Shown: piece after piece, positions 1-10,375 of the stretch | How the letters are laid out: every line of letters starts with the position of its first letter | How positions within the stretch are numbered: the stretch's first letter is position 1 | Origin: a virus | Lineage: Duplodnaviria > Heunggongvirae > Uroviricota > Caudoviricetes | IMG/VR virus record: IMGVR_UViG_2690316347_000010 | Length of the DNA: 10,375 nt | Strand: one strand, 5' to 3' | Translations under genes and position numbers: made by a program | Notes under the pieces: model-generated | What the model was told of the DNA's origin: nothing | The model's input: only the letters and a program-made list of their open reading frames with translations | The model's database searches: none

Positions 1-142
1 CACGTTTTAATCCAGGTCGGCCTGTCCTTGTTCCGCTTAATTTATCTTCAAATATTTGTTCATATCCTGCACAAACAAGAGCGTTTCGTTGCAGGTCTGT
101 ATTCTGGTCATTTGTTGATACCCTTACATAGCCAATCAGCAC
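1..142 (-). CDS. pin: Serine DNA invertase (Pin/Gin/Hin/Cin family), N-terminal 47 codons only; partial, runs off the left window edge
   Basis: Reverse complement of 1..142 is identical to 5776..5917 and encodes MLIGYVRVSTNDQNTDLQRNALVCAGYEQIFEDKLSGTRTGRPGL, which matches the N-terminus of e14 Pin and Mu Gin-type invertases as I recall them, including the catalytic-serine region (VRVSTNDQ). GTG start at 140..142 (minus) with a GGGAG Shine-Dalgarno 7 nt upstream. Whether this copy is intact cannot be seen from the window. Confidence 0.65.
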   Translation of the reverse strand, partial: MLIGYVRVSTNDQNTDLQRNALVCAGYEQIFEDKLSGTRTGRPGLKR

Positions 143-196
143 GCTGAATCTCCCGTCCAAAAGCACAAATCATGCCATGCAGGCCAGAAACCGCCA

Positions 197-222
197 TTAT
201 CTAAAACCTCGGTTTACAGGAA
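197..222 (-). other. 26-bp invertase crossover site (gix/pix-like), pixA, inverted orientation
   Basis: Sequence ttatctaaaacctcggtttacaggaa is the exact reverse complement of the site at 5696..5721. It has two imperfect 12-bp half-sites around a central tc/ga dinucleotide and closely matches the Mu gix / e14 pix consensus as I recall it. It lies between the pin 5' end and the start of the fibre cassette, the canonical position. Confidence 0.8.
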
Positions 223-267
223 ACGGTAAACAAGGCTGGTAACGCCGTTCAGCGTTCCGGCGATAAA

Positions 268-1110
268 ATGACCGGAGAACTGAAAATTGGCACGGTGAAT
301 GCGCTGCGAATTTTCAATGATACCTTCGGTCTAATTTTCCGTCGTTCAGAAGATTTTCTTCATTTCATTCCGACGGCTGAAGGACAAGGCGAAAACGGTA
401 ATATCGGCCCATTAAGGCCATTCGCTATAAATCTGAGAACAGGTGCTATATCTGTCAGCCACGGGGCCAAAATTAAAGGAGGTCTAGCTATTGGAGCTAC
501 TGATAACGCACTGGGTGAAAACTCCATTGTTCTGGGAGATAACGACACCGGATTTAGGCAAGATGGAGATGGTATTATTAGCTTCTATTCAAATGGTTCG
601 CGCATCGGACATATTGATGAGTTAGGATTACATCTTTATAAAGATATTGAATCTAATGGCAGCAATTTTAGATTAAAAAGTAATTACCGCCACCACATTA
701 CATTCGCCAACGAAGACGGAAGAATTCGTATGTTTTTGTGGAAAGATAACGGTGGTGATGGTGTTCATATTAATAACGGTTCAGATGGTGGTGGTGATTT
801 CATTTTTAAAACAGATGGGGGATTTGCGCTGGGAAGTGGTGCGCAAGTTGCGTCTAGTGGCGATATTTATGGTTCAGTGTGGGAAAACAACTGGTTAAGC
901 ACATGGCTGCATAATCATGTCGTTCGGGATATTCGTCTTGGCAGCATTGAATATAAAAACGTATGGCGCGACTACGGCTTTGGCGATGCGTCAGGTTATG
1001 TTTTAACAGCCGCAATTAACAGCAATGCGGATGATATTGTCGACACTGTTGCCAGAAGGCCAATTCAGAAATTGATTGGGGGAATATGGTACAACGTGGG
1101 GAGTGTTTAA
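268..1110 (+). CDS. Alternative (silent) tail-fibre C-terminal variable cassette, 280-aa ORF; frame is open from 205, just inside the crossover site
   Basis: Contains the phage tail-fibre repeat [20 protein letters not shown] (compare [20 protein letters not shown] in stf) and a glycine-rich C-terminal domain. No Shine-Dalgarno before ATG 268, and an in-frame TAA at 202..204 sits inside the outer half-site, as expected for a promoterless cassette expressed only after fusion to the stf constant region. Followed immediately by a tfa gene. Confidence 0.8.
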
Positions 1111-1111
1111 G

Positions 1112-1639
1112 ATGATGCACCTGAAAAATATTAAGGCCGGGAATCCGAAAACACCGGAACAATACCAGCTAACTAAAAAAGCGGGCGTGGTATGGCTCTT
1201 TTGCGAAGATGGCAAAAACTGGTATGAGGAACAAAAGAATTTTCAGCCAGACACCATAAAAATTGCTTACGATGAGAACAACATCATCGTTGCTGTCAGT
1301 AAAGACGTTTCAACTATTAATCCTGAAGGGCTAAGCATAGTTGAAGTTCCTGATATTACGGCAAATCGTCACGCAGACAATAACGGAAAATGGATGTTTC
1401 TGGATGGTAAAGTAGTAAAGAGGGAATATACAGAACAGGAACTGCAACAACAGGCCGAATCACAAAAGGCCGCATTGCTTTCCGAAGCTGAATCAGTCAT
1501 CCAGCCGCTGGAACGCGCTGTCAGGCTGAATATGGCGACGGACGAGGAACGCACACGACTGGAAGCATGGGAACGCTACAGTGTTCTGGTCAGCCGTGTG
1601 GATACGGCAAATCCTGAATGGCCACAAAAGCCTGAATAA
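1112..1639 (+). CDS. tfa: Tail fibre assembly chaperone Tfa (ORF track starts at 1076; the start is more likely ATG 1112 or 1115, giving MMHLKNI/MHLKNI)
   Basis: N-terminus [23 protein letters not shown] and overall sequence resemble lambda Tfa / Mu U family chaperones. GGGAG Shine-Dalgarno at 1098..1102. Start lies 1 nt after the cassette stop (TAA 1108..1110). Paralogous (about half identical by eye) to the convergent 177-aa ORF. Confidence 0.88.
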
Positions 1640-1672
1640 AAATTAAGGCCCGATAGCGGGCCTTCTCTCATT
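1631..1672. terminator. Bidirectional intrinsic terminator between the convergent tfa genes
   Basis: Perfect 8-bp stem aaggcccg (1645..1652), loop atag, cgggcctt (1657..1664). On the minus strand the stem is followed by ttaatttttatt; on the plus strand by a weaker ctctcattct run. It sits exactly between the stop codons of the two tfa genes (1637..1639 and 1668..1670). Confidence 0.6.
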
Positions 1673-2201
1673 CTGGTTGTTCGGGAAACGTTACTGGCAG
1701 GCTGGAGGTGTCTGTGGATTCAACCTTCTGCGCATAGAGCATCCACTCGGTTAATTTTTGTTTATTCTCATCGGAAATGATGCCCAGCTGTAGCTGAGAG
1801 TCCCACAGCTGGGTTTTATCCCTGACGAGCTGCAGCAGGCTCTGCTTTTCATTTTCCGCTTGTTGCCTTTGCTCTTCCTCGGTATAAGTTCGCTTTATCA
1901 CCGCACCATCTTTGAACATCCAGTTGCCCGAAATATCAGCCCGGCGATTTGCTGTAATATCAGGCAACTCAACGACACTTAAACCTTCTGGATTAATTGC
2001 TGATACATCCTTGTCTATAGCAATAATTATTCCCTCAACTGTGTAAGCCAGTTTTATTGTATCCTCCTGAAAGTTTTTTAATTCCTCATGCCAATTTTTT
2101 CCATCTTCGGACCATAACCAGATAACATCAAAATTCTTTGTTAGCTGGTATTGTTCAACGGTTTTTGGATTACCTGCGACAATGTTTTTTAAATGCTGCA
2201 T
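1668..2201 (-). CDS. tfa: Tail fibre assembly chaperone Tfa, second allele (177 aa), presumed partner of the stf-resident C-terminal domain
   Basis: [23 protein letters not shown]...; Tfa/Mu U-like, convergent with the 187-aa tfa. ATG at 2199..2201 lies 2 nt after the stop of the 48-aa ORF (translational coupling). Confidence 0.88.
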
Positions 2202-2203
2202 GA

Positions 2204-2350
2204 TTATACCTGCGATACGTTATACCATGTTCCGTTAATTAACTTTTGTATTGGTCTGAATACTGCCGGATCATCACCATCGACTTCACCGATAATACCA
2301 AGCCCCGTGATTACATGGCCTGATTTTTCATACATCACGCCTTTCTTCAT
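2204..2350 (-). CDS. 48-aa ORF in frame with stf, separated from it only by TAG + ACC; likely the detached ancestral C-terminal tail of the fibre
   Basis: [48 protein letters not shown]. Its C-terminus ([17 protein letters not shown]) parallels the C-terminus of the 280-aa cassette ([18 protein letters not shown]). Below the ORF-track size cutoff; found by manual translation. Confidence 0.45.
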
Positions 2351-2353
2351 GGT

Positions 2354-4282
2354 CTAAACAACTCGTGTGCCAAGTCTGACATCTCTCACATAGCGGGAAT
2401 CAAAGTTACCGTAATCCGAGGGATTAACACGTCCCGTAATATTTATGGTTTTATTACTTTGAATGCTTCCGGAGACAAAGCGCATAACATGGACGTTATT
2501 AGCATAAACATCCAGATTACCATCGCCTTTTTGTTTAAAGCCCGTGTCATTATCACCCAATACAATCGAATTACCGCCAAGAGCACTGGATGTTCCGATA
2601 CCCAGTGCACCATTCAGTTGACCACCAGATAACGGCAGTGCACCAACATCTCCTGCTGAAGGTTTTCTGGTGGTGTAAAATTCGGACCAGTCGGCTTCAA
2701 AACCATAACCATCACGGGCTGAACGATAAAAAATACCGCCATTTTTATAATTAATCCGAAACTGAGCTGCAGGACAACTTCCTTCTCCCATATAAAAATG
2801 AATAATTAACGTTGATGCACCACTAATAGTTGCGTTATAGGCTCCGCTACTCCAGTTCCATCCAACTGCTTTATCATTCGCAACGGTGCTTCCTGTTTTC
2901 CCTAAGGCAAACGCACCAACATGACTTGCTTTTAATGTGATATCGGAGGAACCATCAAAAGCCACATTGCTTATTTTCCTGGCAGTTTTTAATTTTGCAG
3001 CTGTAGAAGCATTGCCGGATAGTTCACCAGAAAGGCCACCGCTGAATGTTTGTCGATTAGTCCAGGTATTCGCTGTACTGAGTAACGGTATTTTCTCCCC
3101 GCTTGTGCCGAGTTCTCGTAAACCGAGGTATTCGATAACGGCAGCAACGGTCGATTTCGCAAGAATATCCCGCCCGACTTTTGTCAGGGTTGCCAGGCTG
3201 GCGACATCATTCCCCGTAAAATACGGAAACTTGCCTGCCGCAGTAGTAAGTCCGGCCAGCGCCGTCAGGGTGGCATCTTTCGGTTGCTTACCCGCAAGCG
3301 CGTTAGTCATGGTGGTCGCAAAATTCGGGTCGTTGCCCAGCGCCGCAGCCAGCTCGTTCAGCGTGTTCAGTGCATCAGGTGACGAATCTACAAGGGCGGC
3401 AATCGCAGCCATAACGAAAGCCGTGCTTGCGATTTGGGTATTATTCGTTCCCTGTCGCGCAGTTGGTGTTGTTGGCGTTCCGGTCAGTGCAGGACTATTT
3501 AAGGGCGCTTTCTTGTTCGTTTCACCCATTACCGCCTTAACCGCTTTTGGCGTTGCCGCCAGTGACTCGGAAGTGCTGTTGGTCGCACTGCTGAGCTGTA
3601 CTATCCCCTTTTTCGTCGTGCTCGCATCCTCCAGCGCCACGGCGGATGCAATATCCTCTGCCCGTTTTGCTGCTGTCTCGGCGCGCGTTGCCGCGGATTC
3701 AGCAGCAACTTTGCTCTGAGATGCAGCCGTCGCACTGCCTGCCGCCTCTGATGCTTTCGTTGTTGCTGTCGTGGCACTACCTTTCGCTGCTGACGCTTGT
3801 CTGGTCGCCTCATCTTTTGAAGCAGACGCAGATGATGCCGATGACGCCGCTGAACTGGCTGACGATGCGGCTGCTGCCTTAGAGGAAGCAGCATTGTCTG
3901 CTGAAGTCTTTGCATTTGTTTCAGAGGTTTTTGCTGCAGAAGCAGACCTCGCTGCTGCAGTGGCTTGCTCAGTGGCTTTGCCAGCCTTCGTTGTGGCTGT
4001 TGAAGCGGATGATGCGGCGCTTTCTGCCGATTTTCCGGCGGCGGTGGCACTGGCTGAGGCCTGCCCGGCACTTGTTGACGCGGCACTGGCAGATAATGCA
4101 GCCGCTGTTTTTGAACCTGCCGCAGCTGAGGCGCTCTGTCCCGCTGCTGTTTCAGAAGACTTAGCGTTCGTCTCGGACGTTTTTGCCGCCTTCGCGGAAT
4201 TTCCTGCCGCCGTTGCCGAGGAAGCTGCACTACTGGCACTTGATGATGCATTCGTTTCTGAATATCGGGCCTTAATTTTTAT
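2354..4282 (-). pseudogene. stf: 5'-truncated duplicate of stf (about residues 241–875); no start codon or N-terminal domain
   Basis: 2183..4262 matches 6801..8880 (offset 4618). The open frame runs upstream to an in-frame TGA at 4283..4285, with no ATG/GTG/TTG until GTG 3640, which is why the ORF track reports only 428 aa. The 5' junction lies 17 nt after the stop of the right-hand tfa copy. Confidence 0.65.
3113..3138 (+). other. gix/pix-like crossover site inside the truncated stf copy (pixB), at the constant/variable junction
   Basis: ttctcgtaaaccgaggtattcgataa matches pixC at 22 of 26 positions with the same central GA dinucleotide. Encodes ...VIEYLGLRE... in stf. Inverted relative to pixA. 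Confidence 0.7.
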
Positions 4283-4806
4283 TCAGGCTTTTGTGGCCAT
4301 TCAGGATTTGCCGTATCCACACGGCTGACCAGAACACTGTAGCGTTCCCATGCTTCCAGTCGTGTGCGTTCCTCGTCTGTTGCCATATTCAGCCTGACAG
4401 CGCGTTCCAGCGGCTGGATGACTGATTCAGCTTCGGAAAGCAATGCGGCCTTTTGTGATTCGGCCTGTTGTTGCAGTTCCTGTTCTGTATATTCCCTCTT
4501 TACTACTTTACCATCCAGAAACATCCATTTTCCGTTATTGTCTGCGTGACGATTTGCCGTAATATCAGGAACTTCAACTATGCTTAGCCCTTCAGGATTA
4601 ATAGTTGAAACGTCTTTACTGACAGCAACGATGATGTTGTTCTCATCGTAAGCAATTTTTATGGTGTCTGGCTGAAAATTCTTTTGTTCCTCATACCAGT
4701 TTTTGCCATCTTCGCAAAAGAGCCATACCACGCCCGCTTTTTTAGTTAGCTGGTATTGTTCCGGTGTTTTCGGATTCCCGGCCTTAATATTTTTCAGGTG
4801 CATCAT
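4279..4806 (-). CDS. tfa: Tail fibre assembly chaperone Tfa (identical copy of 1112..1639)
   Basis: Protein identical to the left-hand 187-aa ORF; part of the inverted repeat R1'. Confidence 0.85.
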
Positions 4807-4807
4807 C

Positions 4808-5650
4808 TTAAACACTCCCCACGTTGTACCATATTCCCCCAATCAATTTCTGAATTGGCCTTCTGGCAACAGTGTCGACAATATCATCCGCATTGCTGTT
4901 AATTGCGGCTGTTAAAACATAACCTGACGCATCGCCAAAGCCGTAGTCGCGCCATACGTTTTTATATTCAATGCTGCCAAGACGAATATCCCGAACGACA
5001 TGATTATGCAGCCATGTGCTTAACCAGTTGTTTTCCCACACTGAACCATAAATATCGCCACTAGACGCAACTTGCGCACCACTTCCCAGCGCAAATCCCC
5101 CATCTGTTTTAAAAATGAAATCACCACCACCATCTGAACCGTTATTAATATGAACACCATCACCACCGTTATCTTTCCACAAAAACATACGAATTCTTCC
5201 GTCTTCGTTGGCGAATGTAATGTGGTGGCGGTAATTACTTTTTAATCTAAAATTGCTGCCATTAGATTCAATATCTTTATAAAGATGTAATCCTAACTCA
5301 TCAATATGTCCGATGCGCGAACCATTTGAATAGAAGCTAATAATACCATCTCCATCTTGCCTAAATCCGGTGTCGTTATCTCCCAGAACAATGGAGTTTT
5401 CACCCAGTGCGTTATCAGTAGCTCCAATAGCTAGACCTCCTTTAATTTTGGCCCCGTGGCTGACAGATATAGCACCTGTTCTCAGATTTATAGCGAATGG
5501 CCTTAATGGGCCGATATTACCGTTTTCGCCTTGTCCTTCAGCCGTCGGAATGAAATGAAGAAAATCTTCTGAACGACGGAAAATTAGACCGAAGGTATCA
5601 TTGAAAATTCGCAGCGCATTCACCGTGCCAATTTTCAGTTCTCCGGTCAT
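4808..5650 (-). CDS. Alternative tail-fibre C-terminal variable cassette (identical copy of 268..1110); frame open up to the crossover site
   Basis: Protein identical to the left-hand 280-aa ORF; lies directly downstream (minus strand) of pixC. Confidence 0.8.
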
Positions 5651-5695
5651 TTTATCGCCGGAACGCTGAACGGCGTTACCAGCCTTGTTTACCGT

Positions 5696-5721
5696 TTCCT
5701 GTAAACCGAGGTTTTAGATAA
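5696..5721 (+). other. 26-bp invertase crossover site (gix/pix-like), pixC
   Basis: ttcctgtaaaccgaggttttagataa; sits between the pin remnant and the fibre cassette. Direct orientation relative to pixB and pixD, inverted relative to pixA. Confidence 0.8.
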
Positions 5722-5775
5722 TGGCGGTTTCTGGCCTGCATGGCATGATTTGTGCTTTTGGACGGGAGATTCAGC

Positions 5776-6102
5776 GTGCTGATTGGCTATGTAAGGGTAT
5801 CAACAAATGACCAGAATACAGACCTGCAACGAAACGCTCTTGTTTGTGCAGGATATGAACAAATATTTGAAGATAAATTAAGCGGAACAAGGACAGGCCG
5901 ACCTGGATTAAAACGTGCTTTAAAGCGCCTTCAAAAAGGTGACGCACTGGTTGTCTGAAAACTGGACTGACTGGGTCACTGTATGCGGCATCTTGTCGTG
6001 CTGGTGGTGGAAGCCTAGAAAAAGTATCGGGTGTTGCTGAACCGTGTTGATACATCAACTGCACCTGATATTGAGTGGCCTACGAACCCTGTCAGGGAGT
6101 AA
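5776..6102 (+). pseudogene. pin: Pin/Gin-family serine invertase, decayed: first 60 codons intact, then in-frame TGA, TGA, TAG and TAA; 3' part divergent and cut short by the methyltransferase gene
   Basis: Translation from GTG 5776 gives MLIGYVRVSTNDQ...LQKGDALVV*KLD*LGHCMRHLVVLVVEA*..., against a remembered Pin sequence ...[29 protein letters not shown].... Stops at 5956..5958, 5968..5970, 6016..6018 and 6100..6102. The ORF track's 5752 start is an upstream in-frame GTG; homology points to 5776. Confidence 0.7.
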
Positions 6103-6156
6103 TCATTGGGATTATGCCGCAGCACGTCTTAAGCAAGAACGTGCTGCGGTTGGATG

Positions 6157-6819
6157 CTATTTTTTCCCTGAAGCGGAAAACATTACTACAGTACCTTGAA
6201 CCTTGGTTTTAACATTCTCGAAATGCTCTGAGAGTATATGTGTTAAGCCTTCTTCGGAATCTTTTGTGTTTGAAAAGATGCCTTTCTGATTGTAAATGCG
6301 CATCAGTTTTTGACCGAAGCTATTGTGCACAACTCCATCGCCAAGAATTGTGGCTCCGTATAGAGTTCCATCGTCAGTTAAGGCCTGCGCCGCATTGCGT
6401 ATTACACAGCTTTTTGTAGATATATTTCCAGGCAGGCAGTGAAGAAGGTAAAACATGGAAATGGAATCAAATTGACCATGTAACGCCGCGGGATAAGGTT
6501 CAAAAACATCATGGCTAATTTTATGTTTAATTTTTGATTCCCCAGCCCTTGTAGATGCCGCGTTCAGGCTAGCTTCGTTCAAATCCATTAAAGATATCAG
6601 ACTACTCTCAGGTACGTGAGTAAGGTAAAACCCAGTTCCAACACCAATATCCAGATGGTTGTTACCTAAATGTTCCAGAAAGTGTGGAAGAAGGTGTTCC
6701 TTTGTAGGACATCCCCATGCAAGCCGATTTGATACTCCCAAAACCCACCAGTCATAAAGCTTTAGGGTAAGTGGTGTGTAAATTTTAGCCCCATCATCTG
6801 TGTTTATTAAATGCTGCAT
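6157..6819 (-). CDS. Putative class I SAM-dependent methyltransferase (220 aa) in the position normally held by tfa
   Basis: Glycine-rich motif-I-like segment LDIGVGTGF. Shares start codon, Shine-Dalgarno context and first codons (MQHL-N) with the 177-aa tfa, then diverges. ATG lies 2 nt after the stop of the 48-aa ORF. May be related to the DLP12 prophage YbcY methyltransferase-like gene that sits among tfa remnants in E. coli K-12; this is from memory and unverified. Confidence 0.6.
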   Translation of the reverse strand: MQHLINTDDGAKIYTPLTLKLYDWWVLGVSNRLAWGCPTKEHLLPHFLEHLGNNHLDIGVGTGFYLTHVPESSLISLMDLNEASLNAASTRAGESKIKHKISHDVFEPYPAALHGQFDSISMFYLLHCLPGNISTKSCVIRNAAQALTDDGTLYGATILGDGVVHNSFGQKLMRIYNQKGIFSNTKDSEEGLTHILSEHFENVKTKVQGTVVMFSASGKK

Positions 6820-6821
6820 GA

Positions 6822-6968
6822 TTATACCTGCGATACGTTATACCATGTTCCGTTAATTAACTTTTGTATTGGTCTGAATACTGCCGGATCATCACCATCG
6901 ACTTCACCGATAATACCAAGCCCCGTGATTACATGGCCTGATTTTTCATACATCACGCCTTTCTTCAT
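6822..6968 (-). CDS. 48-aa ORF (copy of 2204..2350), in frame with stf after a single TAG
   Basis: Identical to the copy at 2204..2350; separated from stf only by TAG (6972..6974) + ACC. Confidence 0.45.
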   Translation of the reverse strand: MKKGVMYEKSGHVITGLGIIGEVDGDDPAVFRPIQKLINGTWYNVSQV

Positions 6969-6971
6969 GGT

Positions 6972-9599
6972 CTAAACAACTCGTGTGCCAAGTCTGACAT
7001 CTCTCACATAGCGGGAATCAAAGTTACCGTAATCCGAGGGATTAACACGTCCCGTAATATTTATGGTTTTATTACTTTGAATGCTTCCGGAGACAAAGCG
7101 CATAACATGGACGTTATTAGCATAAACATCCAGATTACCATCGCCTTTTTGTTTAAAGCCCGTGTCATTATCACCCAATACAATCGAATTACCGCCAAGA
7201 GCACTGGATGTTCCGATACCCAGTGCACCATTCAGTTGACCACCAGATAACGGCAGTGCACCAACATCTCCTGCTGAAGGTTTTCTGGTGGTGTAAAATT
7301 CGGACCAGTCGGCTTCAAAACCATAACCATCACGGGCTGAACGATAAAAAATACCGCCATTTTTATAATTAATCCGAAACTGAGCTGCAGGACAACTTCC
7401 TTCTCCCATATAAAAATGAATAATTAACGTTGATGCACCACTAATAGTTGCGTTATAGGCTCCGCTACTCCAGTTCCATCCAACTGCTTTATCATTCGCA
7501 ACGGTGCTTCCTGTTTTCCCTAAGGCAAACGCACCAACATGACTTGCTTTTAATGTGATATCGGAGGAACCATCAAAAGCCACATTGCTTATTTTCCTGG
7601 CAGTTTTTAATTTTGCAGCTGTAGAAGCATTGCCGGATAGTTCACCAGAAAGGCCACCGCTGAATGTTTGTCGATTAGTCCAGGTATTCGCTGTACTGAG
7701 TAACGGTATTTTCTCCCCGCTTGTGCCGAGTTCTCGTAAACCGAGGTATTCGATAACGGCAGCAACGGTCGATTTCGCAAGAATATCCCGCCCGACTTTT
7801 GTCAGGGTTGCCAGGCTGGCGACATCATTCCCCGTAAAATACGGAAACTTGCCTGCCGCAGTAGTAAGTCCGGCCAGCGCCGTCAGGGTGGCATCTTTCG
7901 GTTGCTTACCCGCAAGCGCGTTAGTCATGGTGGTCGCAAAATTCGGGTCGTTGCCCAGCGCCGCAGCCAGCTCGTTCAGCGTGTTCAGTGCATCAGGTGA
8001 CGAATCTACAAGGGCGGCAATCGCAGCCATAACGAAAGCCGTGCTTGCGATTTGGGTATTATTCGTTCCCTGTCGCGCAGTTGGTGTTGTTGGCGTTCCG
8101 GTCAGTGCAGGACTATTTAAGGGCGCTTTCTTGTTCGTTTCACCCATTACCGCCTTAACCGCTTTTGGCGTTGCCGCCAGTGACTCGGAAGTGCTGTTGG
8201 TCGCACTGCTGAGCTGTACTATCCCCTTTTTCGTCGTGCTCGCATCCTCCAGCGCCACGGCGGATGCAATATCCTCTGCCCGTTTTGCTGCTGTCTCGGC
8301 GCGCGTTGCCGCGGATTCAGCAGCAACTTTGCTCTGAGATGCAGCCGTCGCACTGCCTGCCGCCTCTGATGCTTTCGTTGTTGCTGTCGTGGCACTACCT
8401 TTCGCTGCTGACGCTTGTCTGGTCGCCTCATCTTTTGAAGCAGACGCAGATGATGCCGATGACGCCGCTGAACTGGCTGACGATGCGGCTGCTGCCTTAG
8501 AGGAAGCAGCATTGTCTGCTGAAGTCTTTGCATTTGTTTCAGAGGTTTTTGCTGCAGAAGCAGACCTCGCTGCTGCAGTGGCTTGCTCAGTGGCTTTGCC
8601 AGCCTTCGTTGTGGCTGTTGAAGCGGATGATGCGGCGCTTTCTGCCGATTTTCCGGCGGCGGTGGCACTGGCTGAGGCCTGCCCGGCACTTGTTGACGCG
8701 GCACTGGCAGATAATGCAGCCGCTGTTTTTGAACCTGCCGCAGCTGAGGCGCTCTGTCCCGCTGCTGTTTCAGAAGACTTAGCGTTCGTCTCGGACGTTT
8801 TTGCCGCCTTCGCGGAATTTCCTGCCGCCGTTGCCGAGGAAGCTGCACTACTGGCACTTGATGATGCATTCGTTTCTGAAGATTTCGCTGCCTCTTTTGA
8901 GGCCGCCGCACCCCGTGCCGAGGTGGCAGCTTCTGACGCCTTCGTGGTCGCTGTGGATGCAGAAGTGGCTGCCGATTTTTGTGATGCTGCGGCATTCGTT
9001 TCTGACGTTTTCGCGGCACTGGCGCTGGTAGCTGCCGCGCTTTTTGATGACTCTGCAGCAGCACTTTTTGCTGCTTCACGGGCCTTTGTCGATGCCGTTC
9101 CTGCGCTGGAAGACGCTGACTGAGCCGACGACGCGGCCTGTCCGGCTGACGTGCTGGCGGCACGTGCTGAGGCTGCAGCATCGGTTGCATGAGTTGCCGC
9201 CTCGCTGGCTGATTTTTTCGCGGCTGCCGTATTCTGTGCAACCGCGGAGGCGTTACGTGACACCTCTTCCACCATCTGCTCAAAGCGGCGCAGTGCCTCC
9301 GGTCGGACATCATCCTCCGTCATGGCACCGAGAAAATCATTCAGCGTACCTGGTCTGGAACCTTCATAGACGGTAATGGTCCCGGCATGTGAAGGCGGAA
9401 AACCTTCAACCAGCAGGGTGACGCTGTACTGACCATGCTCAACATCCATGCTGTAACGTCCGGCTTCATCCGGATTTTCAGAGGCCACCGTGTTCACCAC
9501 CATCGTGCTGCTGGTTCGTCTGGCCTTCAGCACAATGGTGCAGTTCTGTACTGGTTTTCCTGTGCCATCTTTAAGCACGCCAGAAATTTTTACTGTCAT
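6972..9599 (-). CDS. stf: Side tail fibre protein Stf, full length (875 aa): conserved N-terminal domain, Ala/Ser-rich repetitive shaft, C-terminal receptor-binding domain
   Basis: N-terminus MTVKISGVLKDGTGKPVQNCTIVLKARR...GQYSVTLLVEGFPPSHAGTITVYE closely matches lambda/Rac Stf as I recall it. Long SETNA/Ala-Ser repeat region; C-terminal [14 protein letters not shown] fibre repeat. Lies downstream of lom as in lambda. Confidence 0.92.
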   Translation of the reverse strand: MTVKISGVLKDGTGKPVQNCTIVLKARRTSSTMVVNTVASENPDEAGRYSMDVEHGQYSVTLLVEGFPPSHAGTITVYEGSRPGTLNDFLGAMTEDDVRPEALRRFEQMVEEVSRNASAVAQNTAAAKKSASEAATHATDAAASARAASTSAGQAASSAQSASSSAGTASTKAREAAKSAAAESSKSAAATSASAAKTSETNAAASQKSAATSASTATTKASEAATSARGAAASKEAAKSSETNASSSASSAASSATAAGNSAKAAKTSETNAKSSETAAGQSASAAAGSKTAAALSASAASTSAGQASASATAAGKSAESAASSASTATTKAGKATEQATAAARSASAAKTSETNAKTSADNAASSKAAAASSASSAASSASSASASKDEATRQASAAKGSATTATTKASEAAGSATAASQSKVAAESAATRAETAAKRAEDIASAVALEDASTTKKGIVQLSSATNSTSESLAATPKAVKAVMGETNKKAPLNSPALTGTPTTPTARQGTNNTQIASTAFVMAAIAALVDSSPDALNTLNELAAALGNDPNFATTMTNALAGKQPKDATLTALAGLTTAAGKFPYFTGNDVASLATLTKVGRDILAKSTVAAVIEYLGLRELGTSGEKIPLLSTANTWTNRQTFSGGLSGELSGNASTAAKLKTARKISNVAFDGSSDITLKASHVGAFALGKTGSTVANDKAVGWNWSSGAYNATISGASTLIIHFYMGEGSCPAAQFRINYKNGGIFYRSARDGYGFEADWSEFYTTRKPSAGDVGALPLSGGQLNGALGIGTSSALGGNSIVLGDNDTGFKQKGDGNLDVYANNVHVMRFVSGSIQSNKTINITGRVNPSDYGNFDSRYVRDVRLGTRVV
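7731..7756 (+). other. gix/pix-like crossover site inside full-length stf (pixD)
   Basis: Identical to pixB (offset 4618); 22 of 26 match to pixC with the same central dinucleotide; encodes VIEYLGLRE. Confidence 0.7.
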
Positions 9600-9610
9600 A
9601 CTTTTCCACC

Positions 9611-9646
9611 AATAAAAAAAGCCCGCAGCAGTGACGCCACGGGCTT
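9611..9646 (-). terminator. Putative intrinsic terminator downstream of lom, just upstream of the stf start
   Basis: On the minus strand: 7-bp stem aagcccg/cgggctt with a 14-nt loop, followed by a run of T (A-run 9614..9620 on the plus strand). Confidence 0.5.
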
Positions 9647-9750
9647 CAGGACAGTGTAACTTTACGTTTCCTCAAACGCAGTTCACCCCATAAGGTGGAT
9701 GAACCTGCGTATCATAACAATATTTACAGAAGATAAATCGGCGTCTGTTG

Positions 9751-10350
9751 TCAGATACGGTATCCGATACCAACAATAAATGCATCCGTTCGCCAGTCAC
9801 CACTACCGGAACCTTCATAAGCAAGGTCAATGGTCACGGATTCGGTCGGGTTAAACTGCACGCCAGCCCCCCACGCCAGAGACGTGTTGCTGTGGCGACC
9901 GTCATCACTTCCGGTCAGCACATCGTGCGTTTTCCCCTTGTTGTCAGTTACGCGGAGATAATCCCCGGAGAAAGTCGACACACGGCTGTAAGCCACACCC
10001 ACCATCGCATACGCGCTGAACCATTCATTCACGCGTACAGACGGCCCCGCCATCACGCTGAACCAGCGGTTACGCACGGAATCTTCATGCCAGCGGGTAT
10101 CGCTGTAGTGCGTTTTTTGCTCATCCTCAGCATTGGCATAACTGAAGGACGTAATCAGCCCCAGCGCGTCCGTAAACTCATAACGGTATTTCACGTTAAT
10201 CCCGTTCAGATTATCGCTGCCGGGAGCGTTCGTACGGGCATGAAGATACCCCGCGCTCAGTGTGGACTGATGTTCAGACGCCCATGCAGGCGCACCGGAT
10301 ACGGACAGACAGATGGCTGCGGACAAAATGGCTGCACAAACTTTACGCAT
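9751..10350 (-). CDS. lom: Lom outer-membrane protein (Ail/PagC/OmpX family), with signal peptide
   Basis: MRKVCAAILSAAICLSVSGAPAWA signal peptide followed by SEHQSTLSAGYLHA...; near-identical by recall to phage lambda Lom. GAGAGG Shine-Dalgarno upstream of the ATG. Lies upstream of stf as in lambda. Confidence 0.93.
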   Translation of the reverse strand: MRKVCAAILSAAICLSVSGAPAWASEHQSTLSAGYLHARTNAPGSDNLNGINVKYRYEFTDALGLITSFSYANAEDEQKTHYSDTRWHEDSVRNRWFSVMAGPSVRVNEWFSAYAMVGVAYSRVSTFSGDYLRVTDNKGKTHDVLTGSDDGRHSNTSLAWGAGVQFNPTESVTIDLAYEGSGSGDWRTDAFIVGIGYRI

Positions 10351-10375
10351 AATTACCTCTCGCTTTTCTGCAATA

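Follow-up and report, generated by a model that had tools for sequence, protein, structure and literature searches.

A probable Mu-type invertible tail-fibre segment, with two crossover sites, in the stf gene of a degraded lambdoid prophage

The window analysed here, a whole stretch of 10,375 nucleotides (IMG/VR record IMGVR_UViG_2690316347_000010), contains a side tail fibre gene (stf) with a 26-bp site inside its reading frame. The locus raises the question of whether this site belongs to a switch between alternative fibres, how many sites take part and whether the switch still operates. The reading that we favour, with a probability of about 0.9, is that the site is one of the two sites of a Mu-type (Gin/gix) invertible tail-fibre segment on the stf gene of a decayed lambdoid prophage, most likely from Shigella sonnei, that any flipping today would occur in trans and that the layout of four sites seen in the window arose from scaffolding.

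The pattern TTATCNNNNACCTCGGTTTACNNGAA was found four times in the window and in none of 200 shuffled versions:

7731-7756, minus strand: stf crossover site (gix-like) at the boundary of the constant part (Sc) and the variable part (SvA) of the fibre gene, TTATCGAATACC-TC-GGTTTACGAGAA, core TC at 7744-7743
197-222, plus strand: cassette-side (invertase-proximal) crossover site, TTATCTAAAACC-TC-GGTTTACAGGAA, core TC at 209-210
3113-3138, minus strand: second representation of the stf site, in contig 1-4261, with the same sequence as 7731-7756
5696-5721, minus strand: second representation of the cassette-side site, in contig 4263-6805, by pattern match

Each site is composed of two 12-bp half-sites in imperfect inverted repetition (7–9 of 12 positions matching) with a 2-bp core between them. 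The core dinucleotide is TC in every copy, as it is in the gix site of phage Mu (TTATCCAAAACC TC GGTTTACAGGAA), from which the cassette-side site differs at one position and the stf site at four. A sequence-only reading of this DNA had proposed four sites to be aligned; the four are two real sites, each represented twice. The stf site has its true inverted partner in the cassette-side site at 197-222 (+), which shares one N-free contig with the copy at 3113-3138 (-). Inverted 26-bp sites flanking a segment in this way have equivalents in the closed genomes L002, L004, L006 and L013.

The fibre gene, its cassettes and their chaperone genes were delimited as follows:

7743-9599, minus strand: Sc, constant N-terminal part of the side tail fibre Stf (Pfam PF08400 phage_tail_N, E = 3e-69)
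6972-7742, minus strand: SvA, variable C-terminal part now fused to Sc, with a premature amber TAG at 6974-6972
6822-6971, minus strand: remainder of SvA, 48 codons past the amber, a separate 48-aa ORF according to gene callers
205-1110, plus strand: SvB, silent alternative variable cassette, 301 codons after a TAA (Pfam gp37_trimer)
1112-1639, plus strand: tfaB, tail-fibre assembly chaperone paired with SvB (Caudo_TAP, E = 1e-36), called as a 175-aa gene
1668-2201, minus strand: tfaA', tail-fibre assembly chaperone paired with SvA (Caudo_TAP, E = 5e-34)

Pfam domains over the locus comprised phage_tail_N, gp37_trimer, two matches to Caudo_TAP and Resolvase, and an Rfam scan of the window gave no match. 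Besides the lambda-type phage_tail_N domain, Sc has an Ala/Ser-rich repeat region. SvA includes a stretch 84% identical to S' of Mu (BLASTP), and its amber removes the 48 C-terminal residues: the orthologue in NCTC86 has CAG at this codon and continues for 48 aa. The C-terminus of SvB is intact and of the canonical type. This cassette has neither a start codon nor the Sc part of the gene, and its frame, from position 205 on, stays open up to the terminal stop at 1108-1110, the only one it has, versus 14 and 31 stops in the other frames. The SvA-tfaA' and SvB-tfaB cassettes converge, with a terminator-like hairpin at 1645-1664 between the convergent tfaA' and tfaB genes, and the crossover site lies inside the fibre ORF at a point where the cassettes can be swapped in frame.

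This last property was the core of the sequence-only reading, and here it stood up well. The stf site falls within the 875-aa stf ORF (6972-9599, -), which is translated there as ...AAVIEYLGLRELGTSGEK..., and both the stf site (VIEYLGLRE) and the cassette-side site begin at codon phase 1 (TT ATC ...), as had been described. Exchange at the central dinucleotide had been predicted to give a complete alternative fibre; when Sc (9599 to 7743, -) and SvB (211 to 1110, +) were joined in silico at the shared TC, the product was open over 918 codons with 0 internal stops, and its junction peptide, AVIEYLGLQETVNKAGNAVQ (also given as AVIEYLGLQETVNK), was the one originally written. Re-translation across the recombinant junction revealed neither a frame shift nor a stop, and the core TC is common to the sites. 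The reciprocal product places SvA behind the same TAA.

That TAA, which is in frame with SvB and lies within the fixed outer half-site of the cassette site, had been credited with keeping the cassette silent until recombination. It does halt read-in toward SvB from an upstream ATG at 172-174, but it is not a required element of the design, since Mu carries CAA (Gln) at the same position in both of its gix sites; the idea of a necessary, designed silencer was therefore dropped.

The predicted recombinant is also found in nature. In E. coli IPCEC48, the same prophage locus, on the trp/ompW side, has TTATCGAATACC-TC-GGTTTACAGGAA as its stf site and TTATCTAAAACC-TC-GGTTTACGAGAA as its cassette site, a reciprocal swap of half-sites with the segment inverted. 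The hybrid ORF, encoding the junction peptide as predicted, is present in sister S. sonnei assemblies; the recombinant junctions in these drafts are exact over 226 nt, and one contig (L019) spans the stretch between lom and SvB, with the start codon of Stf and the recombinant site in it. The flipped state occurs in sister drafts L019, L008, L020 and L022, whose flanks are ~99.9–100% identical, implying recent inversion within the lineage, and the presence of both states in one isolate (L008) is suggested by error-prone scaffolds. Across complete E. coli genomes, the Sc-SvB junction is present in 243 and the Sc-SvA junction in 330 (at least 80% coverage). Each of the four closed S. sonnei genomes has the segment in the SvA orientation, so flipping may be rare. 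The natural recombinants show that the segment has inverted by exchange at the sites.

Two further features bear on the enzyme that would carry out such an inversion:

5776-6105, plus strand: Gin-type serine invertase pseudogene with 60 good codons (VLIGYVRVS9TNDQ...), then TGA, TGA and TAG
5794-5865, plus strand: homologue of the Fis-dependent recombinational enhancer, in the invertase 5' coding region, identified by alignment, with a repeat at 53-124 (reverse complement)

No intact adjacent serine invertase (Resolvase with Ser9 plus HTH_7) was found in the window, only this pseudogene remnant, the 5' end of which is repeated at 144 to 1 (-). The remnant keeps the Ser9 motif and matches positions 2-69 of 145 in Pfam Resolvase, with the E-helix and HTH domain missing. 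Its orthologues are annotated by NCBI as an incomplete recombinase, and the same truncation is found in both orientation states (NCTC86, IPCEC48 and S. sonnei). Mu-like phages have a gin region with 92–95% identity to the site plus the invertase 5' region; the enhancer homologue matches Mu gin at 71/72 positions and the annotated enhancer of the P1 cin record at 54/72. Because the adjacent invertase gene is a pseudogene, inversion here would depend on an invertase in trans, and we infer that the cis invertase is dead in this genome and that, if the segment still flips today, the catalyst must act in trans. An intact paralogue of 195 aa (Resolvase plus HTH_7) is encoded in a P2-like prophage of the sister isolates L003 (19251-19838) and L014, where it is flanked by identical 26-bp sites, and this prophage has 1,471 nt in common with SvA and its site at 99.9% identity. 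This Gin homologue, known only from the sister isolates, is the candidate trans invertase.

Under the favoured reading, the two inverted 26-bp sites lie ~2.9 kb apart, one at the Sc/Sv boundary in stf and the other just upstream of the invertase gene, with the convergent cassettes SvA-tfaA' and SvB-tfaB between them. As established for this family, a serine invertase of the Gin family would make cuts staggered by 2 bp at the TC of both sites, followed by rotation and religation, and religation after the 180-degree rotation would require an identical central dinucleotide. Each flip would set Sc in frame with SvA or SvB, with that cassette's own chaperone gene next in either case, and the trans invertase would use the enhancer homologue left in the 5' end of the pseudogene.

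How far do other explanations account for the same observations? It is very improbable that the window portrays a true four-site multi-inversion locus of the shufflon or p15B Min kind, in which a duplicated 3' part of stf and an inverted duplicate cassette would allow several fusions and deletions. As given, the window does show four sites, an inverted repeat of 1655 nt (1-1655 and 4263-5917) and a direct repeat of 2074 nt (2189-4262 and 6807-8880), and the two tfaB copies are not byte-identical, differing by two synonymous changes. However, the window is the reverse complement of CXDU01000179.1, a whole draft scaffold, except at two positions where N has become A:

4262, no strand: scaffold gap between contig 1-4261 and contig 4263-6805; N in CXDU01000179.1, A in the window
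6806, no strand: scaffold gap between contig 4263-6805 and contig 6807-10375; N in CXDU01000179.1, A in the window, unlike either parental sequence

Both novel junctions, J1 (4262/4263) and J2 (6806), coincide exactly with these single-N gaps. The scaffold consists of three overlapping contigs, so the sites at 3113-3138 and 5696-5721 are repeat representations, and no continuous molecule in the window holds three or more sites, the four being spread over the three N-joined contigs. No copy of either junction was present among 5,426 complete E. coli genomes; a search of GTDB species representatives, made with J1 only, did not find it. The two-site layout is seen in four closed genomes of the lineage at 99.9% identity, S. 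sonnei 830292 among them, and sister drafts show differing scrambles of the locus, each at an N. Only two of the sites are real, and the four-site layout is a scaffolding artefact. Several ideas raised by the layout fall with it. J1 lies within the loop of the tfa terminator hairpin, hence the idea of a genuine inverted duplication by replication template switching, which was dropped on finding N at both junctions in the public record. A 220-aa methyltransferase ORF across J2 ('MQHLINTDDG...') is not on record and is a chimera made by the gap; the native protein begins MVKSMKTNTDDG. A deletion product expected from the direct orientation of 5696-5721 and 7731-7756 is moot, as that orientation is uninformative given the scaffolder's arbitrary placement of contigs.

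It is just as hard to credit that the alternative arrangement arose from tail-fibre paralogues by RecA-dependent homologous recombination or by gene conversion. The genome offers substrates in several near-identical fibre modules, for example the stretch in common with the P2-like prophage, yet the only inverted homology between the segment ends is the 26-bp site, with unrelated flanks on either side of it. Among the natural recombinants, both reciprocal products occur, and the exchange maps exactly to the site, between its positions 9 and 22. A more serious alternative, though one that we consider unlikely, is that the switch is a fossil, frozen after decay of the cis invertase, and that the orientations seen among strains predate this decay or come from lateral transfer of flipped prophages. 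The identically shortened pseudogene in both orientation states fits this explanation, as do the uniform SvA state of the closed S. sonnei genomes (4/4) and the signs of decay in the SvA amber and the split J. Against it stand the near-identity of the flanks in the flipped sister drafts, the intact Gin homologue with identical 26-bp sites in the P2-like prophage of the same lineage, an enhancer homologue that has kept all but one of 72 positions relative to Mu, and the documented flipping of a segment in trans by the Pin of another prophage in E. coli K-12 (PMC12529663).

We therefore retain the Mu-type two-site segment, with any present-day flipping in trans, as the best explanation, and the remaining issue is what it does. 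The sequence-only reading had seen direct support for a working host-range switch. The sites, their phase and the hybrid ORF uphold that view, and the invertase pseudogene, the SvA amber and the split J weaken it. Since the prophage J gene is split in closed S. sonnei genomes and SvA is shortened by the amber, it is doubtful that the segment works as a host-range switch for a live phage, and it may have ceased to be of use to a phage. As a tentative suggestion, to which we attach rather little weight, the lambdoid prophage of S. sonnei might still be flipped by the Gin of the co-resident P2-like prophage, with the first ~180 nt of the dead gene kept for the cis-acting enhancer in them, and the switch might be maintained because it benefits the host, as for PinQ/StfE2, rather than for phage host range.

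The gain for biology is small, the locus being near-identical to phage Mu in its sites. Of modest interest is the apparent recent flip within S. sonnei despite a dead invertase of its own, likely another case of control in trans across prophages. The locus also carries a caution: invertible fibre segments, together with near-identical prophage fibre modules, lead short-read scaffolders to duplicate or mis-orient contigs, and the replacement of gap Ns by bases then turned a two-site switch into an apparent four-site shufflon with fake fusion ORFs.

The design of the switch is already known and is the textbook tail-fibre inversion of phage Mu by Gin at gix; textbooks have covered in-frame exchange of tail-fibre C-termini at gix, cix or pix sites since the 1980s. 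With the Mu G segment (Gin-gix; also D108 and Shigella phage SfMu), the locus shares near-identical 26-bp sites with a TC core and the codon phase in the fibre gene (F/IQNLGLQE in Mu, V/IEYLGLRE here). The order also corresponds, S-U-U'-S'-gin in Mu and SfMu and Sc-site-Sv-tfa / tfa'-Sv'-site-invertase here, and the gin-proximal site of SfMu is the cassette site found here, TAA included. Unlike in Mu, the constant part is a lambda-type Stf on a lambdoid prophage and not Mu S, SvB is related only distantly to Mu Sv, the invertase is a pseudogene and SvA is shortened. Published work describes how Gin acts and what the G segment does (PMC3575834, PMC4406740).

The C segment of P1/P7 (Cin-cix) is alike in family and architecture; its enhancer is inside the invertase 5' coding region, and 5794-5865 of the window can be aligned with it. 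However, identity to P1 is only 74.5% where the invertase 5' region aligns (window 5777-5913) and 75% over the enhancer stretch, the cixL region (AATCCTAAACCTTGGTTTAAGAGAA region) differs in sequence and cin lies on the opposite side of the segment relative to S. Plasmid p15B Min and the R64 shufflon, which are multiple-inversion systems, are superficially similar to the window as given, with more than two sites and several cassettes, but only two sites and two cassettes exist at the real locus. Lastly, the P segment of the E. coli K-12 prophage e14 (Pin) is likewise an invertible stf/tfa segment on a cryptic lambdoid prophage with a Gin-family serine invertase. e14 retains its own pin gene, whereas the cis invertase gene of the present locus is dead. 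In E. coli K-12, the invertase of another prophage (PinQ or PinR) can flip the segment in trans to give a chimeric fibre protein, and PinQ/StfE2 has an anti-phage effect (PMC12529663).

The crossover site in the side-tail-fibre gene stf (window 7731-7756, minus strand) reads TTATCGAATACC-TC-GGTTTACGAGAA and lies within an 875-codon open reading frame (ORF; 6972-9599, minus strand; local translation ...KSTVAAVIEYLGLRELGTSGEK...) that begins with a side-tail-fibre domain of the lambda type (Pfam phage_tail_N, E = 3e-69). The degenerate pattern TTATCNNNNACCTCGGTTTACNNGAA matched four times in the window, versus zero matches in 200 shuffles. These sites and other features of the locus are as follows:

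3113-3138 and 7731-7756, both minus strand: stf-type sites, mutually identical
197-222 (plus) and 5696-5721 (minus): cassette-type sites, TTATCTAAAACC-TC-GGTTTACAGGAA, by pattern match
5776-6105 (and 1-144, minus): Gin-type invertase pseudogene, Pfam Resolvase positions 2-69 of 145
6822-6968: remainder of the variable fibre part SvA, called as a separate 48-aa ORF
2354-2356: second copy, in the window, of the amber codon that ends SvA

Both kinds of site start in codon phase 1 (TT/ATC/...), as the sequence-only reading had held, and the cassette site leads into an open frame of 301 codons (205-1110) with a terminal stop only; the alternative frames contain 14 and 31 stops. The Ala/Ser/Thr-rich middle of Stf (8376-9017, and 3758-4273) carries an imperfect 33-nt unit in 11 copies (64-100% identity, variable spacing of about 84-150 nt), which is typical for such fibres.

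The four-site layout, and with it half of the apparent structure, was created by scaffolding. Reverse-complemented, the 10,375-nt record CXDU01000179.1 (assembly GCA_001248965.1) equals the window over its full length except at 4262 and 6806, where the public record has N and the window has A; these are exactly the two novel junctions (J1, 4262/4263, and J2, at 6806), and the A at 6806 agrees with neither parent. Three contigs (1-4261, 4263-6805 and 6807-10375) are thus scaffolded in the window, representing one locus redundantly, and the single-N gaps account for the four sites and for all large repeats (1655 nt inverted, 1-1655/4263-5917; 2074 nt direct, 2189-4262/6807-8880). Both junctions were absent from 5,426 complete E. 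coli genomes, and J1, the sole junction searched there, was absent from GTDB species representatives. The simple two-site layout is found at ~99.9% identity in four closed genomes (CP044151.1, CP179990.1, UGZF01000005.1 and CP041511.1; CP179990 is S. sonnei 830292 (PMC12511311)), and other drafts of the lineage are scrambled differently, each at an N.

We rejected three readings of the window as biology: the direct orientation of 5696-5721 relative to 7731-7756, which follows from the scaffold; the promoter-less second stf fragment, a scaffold artefact; and the 220-aa 'MQHLI...' methyltransferase ORF, a scaffold-gap chimera. This last ORF (6157-6819, minus strand; class I SAM-methyltransferase) borrows its MQHLI start from the chaperone gene tfaA', the native protein in closed genomes having 222 aa and starting MVKSMKTNTDDG; the gene is widespread prophage cargo with tfa remnants on its flanks. 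The loop of a terminator-like GC hairpin between the convergent tfa genes (1645-1664; AAGGCCCG-CTAT-CGGGCCTT on the minus strand) is exactly where one scaffold contig stops (window 4263 corresponds to 1655 in reverse complement). The two representations of tfaB differ by two synonymous G/A changes (1537 and 1540 versus 4381 and 4378), which point to a polymorphic population or to reads drawn from another copy that differs slightly.

To build the recombinant in silico, the constant fibre part Sc (9599 to 7743, minus strand) was fused to the silent cassette SvB (211 to 1110, plus strand) at the common TC core. The hybrid is a 918-codon ORF with no internal stop, and its junction translates exactly to the peptide expected by the sequence-only reading, which had predicted a complete alternative fibre from exchange at the central dinucleotide; the junction has neither frameshift nor stop, and the core dinucleotide is common to the sites. 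In the reciprocal product, SvA lands behind the same in-frame TAA.

Natural recombinants corroborate this in-frame swap as the correct reading. The in-silico 400-nt Sc-SvB junction was found in 243 complete E. coli genomes (at least 80% coverage) and the parental Sc-SvA junction in 330. E. coli IPCEC48 carries the segment inverted at the same chromosomal locus (prophage between lom/J and an ompW remnant plus trpA), and its stf site (TTATCGAATACC-TC-GGTTTACAGGAA) and cassette site (TTATCTAAAACC-TC-GGTTTACGAGAA) are an exact reciprocal half-site swap. This places the exchange somewhere between positions 9 and 22 of the site, which fits a crossover at the central dinucleotide; homologous recombination seems an unlikely cause because the two sites lie in unrelated flanking sequence. 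Exact 226-nt recombinant junctions also occur in sister S. sonnei assemblies (~99.9-100% identity): in L019, lom, the Stf start codon (MTVKISGV...), the recombinant site and SvB follow one another on a single N-free contig, and in another assembly (L020) the 395 residues of one ORF are identical to the C-terminal part of the in-silico hybrid. A further sister draft, L008 (13481-18175 versus 9225-13479), has Sc-SvA as well as Sc-SvB contigs, all of them preceded by >1.1 kb of lambdoid-specific Sc. This is a hint that the sequenced culture was a mix of the two orientations; gap filling could also have produced the pattern.

Whether the switch works is a separate matter, and here the claim of a working host-range switch stood in part: the in-frame swap and natural recombinants favour it, but the cis invertase is dead, the expressed SvA is truncated and the tail-tip gene J is split. 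The site-adjoining invertase keeps 60 good codons (VLIGYVRVSTNDQ...) including Ser9, followed by TGA, TGA, TAG and unrelated sequence, and lacks the E-helix and HTH domain; NCBI labels its E. coli orthologues incomplete recombinase. SvA is cut short by an amber codon (CAG to TAG, 6974-6972), losing 48 residues (TMKKGV...) kept in the E. coli NCTC86 orthologue, and J is split in two in closed genomes of the lineage, both of which weigh against a live switch. The J fragments in these closed genomes are 547-aa and 513-aa ORFs (L002, 6004-9182), another assembly (L010, 5703-9182) keeps an uninterrupted J of 1159 aa, and in the closed L013 stf is interrupted by an IS element. The prophage that carries the switch is degrading: its cis invertase is dead and the fibre it expresses is truncated. 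The proposal that the TAA of the cassette site keeps the cassette silent also held only partly: it lies in the fixed outer half-site and would block read-in from the upstream ATG (172-174) regardless of which cassette is parked there, but Mu works with CAA at this position, and TAA is therefore not required.

Flipping in trans is a plausible possibility for the window's own genome: in sister isolates, a P2-like prophage encodes an intact 195-aa invertase (Resolvase + HTH_7) that has the same pair of 26-bp sequences on its flanks (L003 15617-22628, N-free), and the flipped state of sister isolates supports such flipping. PinQ of prophage Qin, which inverts the e14 P segment, is a precedent (PMC12529663). 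A stretch of 1,471 nt, covering SvA, the site and 528 nt of constant region, is 99.9% identical between the P2-like and lambdoid prophages, and the P2-like prophage is a likely source of both the trans invertase and the assembly confusion. That prophage has its own invertible fibre segment, whose second cassette differs (328 aa, Gp34_trimer). The first 180 nt of the pseudogene match the intact paralogue at 172/180, similarity collapsing beyond, and contain an enhancer homologue (5794-5865; 71/72 versus Mu gin, 54/72 versus the annotated P1 enhancer); this conservation could reflect selection on a cis-acting enhancer or merely a recombination breakpoint.

The site and adjoining 5' end of the recombinase gene match the gin region of Mu-like phages, among them SfMu, Mu_3F6 and Yersinia Mu-like phages, at 92-95% identity. 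How this family inverts DNA is well established: Gin binds as dimers at each gix site, Fis at the enhancer activates the synaptic tetramer, and Ser9 makes 2-bp staggered double-strand cuts, followed by 180-degree rotation of one dimer pair and religation. The outcome is a changed C-terminus of the tail fibre and a changed host range (PMC3575834; PMC4406740). By homology, the same binding, cutting, rotation and religation would apply at this locus. Both Mu gix sites read TTATCCAAAACC-TC-GGTTTACAGGAA, in codon phase 1 of gene S (F/IQNLGLQE) like the window sites; the cassette site is one base away (C6 to T, turning CAA into TAA) and identical, TAA included, to the gin-proximal site of SfMu, whereas the stf site is four bases from Mu gix. 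One stretch of SvA is 84% identical to Mu S'. The locus order (constant fibre part, site, SvA, tfaA'; converging tfaB, SvB, site; then invertase) is that of Mu and SfMu, S-U-U'-S'-gin. The in-frame arrangement is the defining design of the known Gin/gix family, and the element is an ordinary, already known member of this long-known Mu G-segment class.
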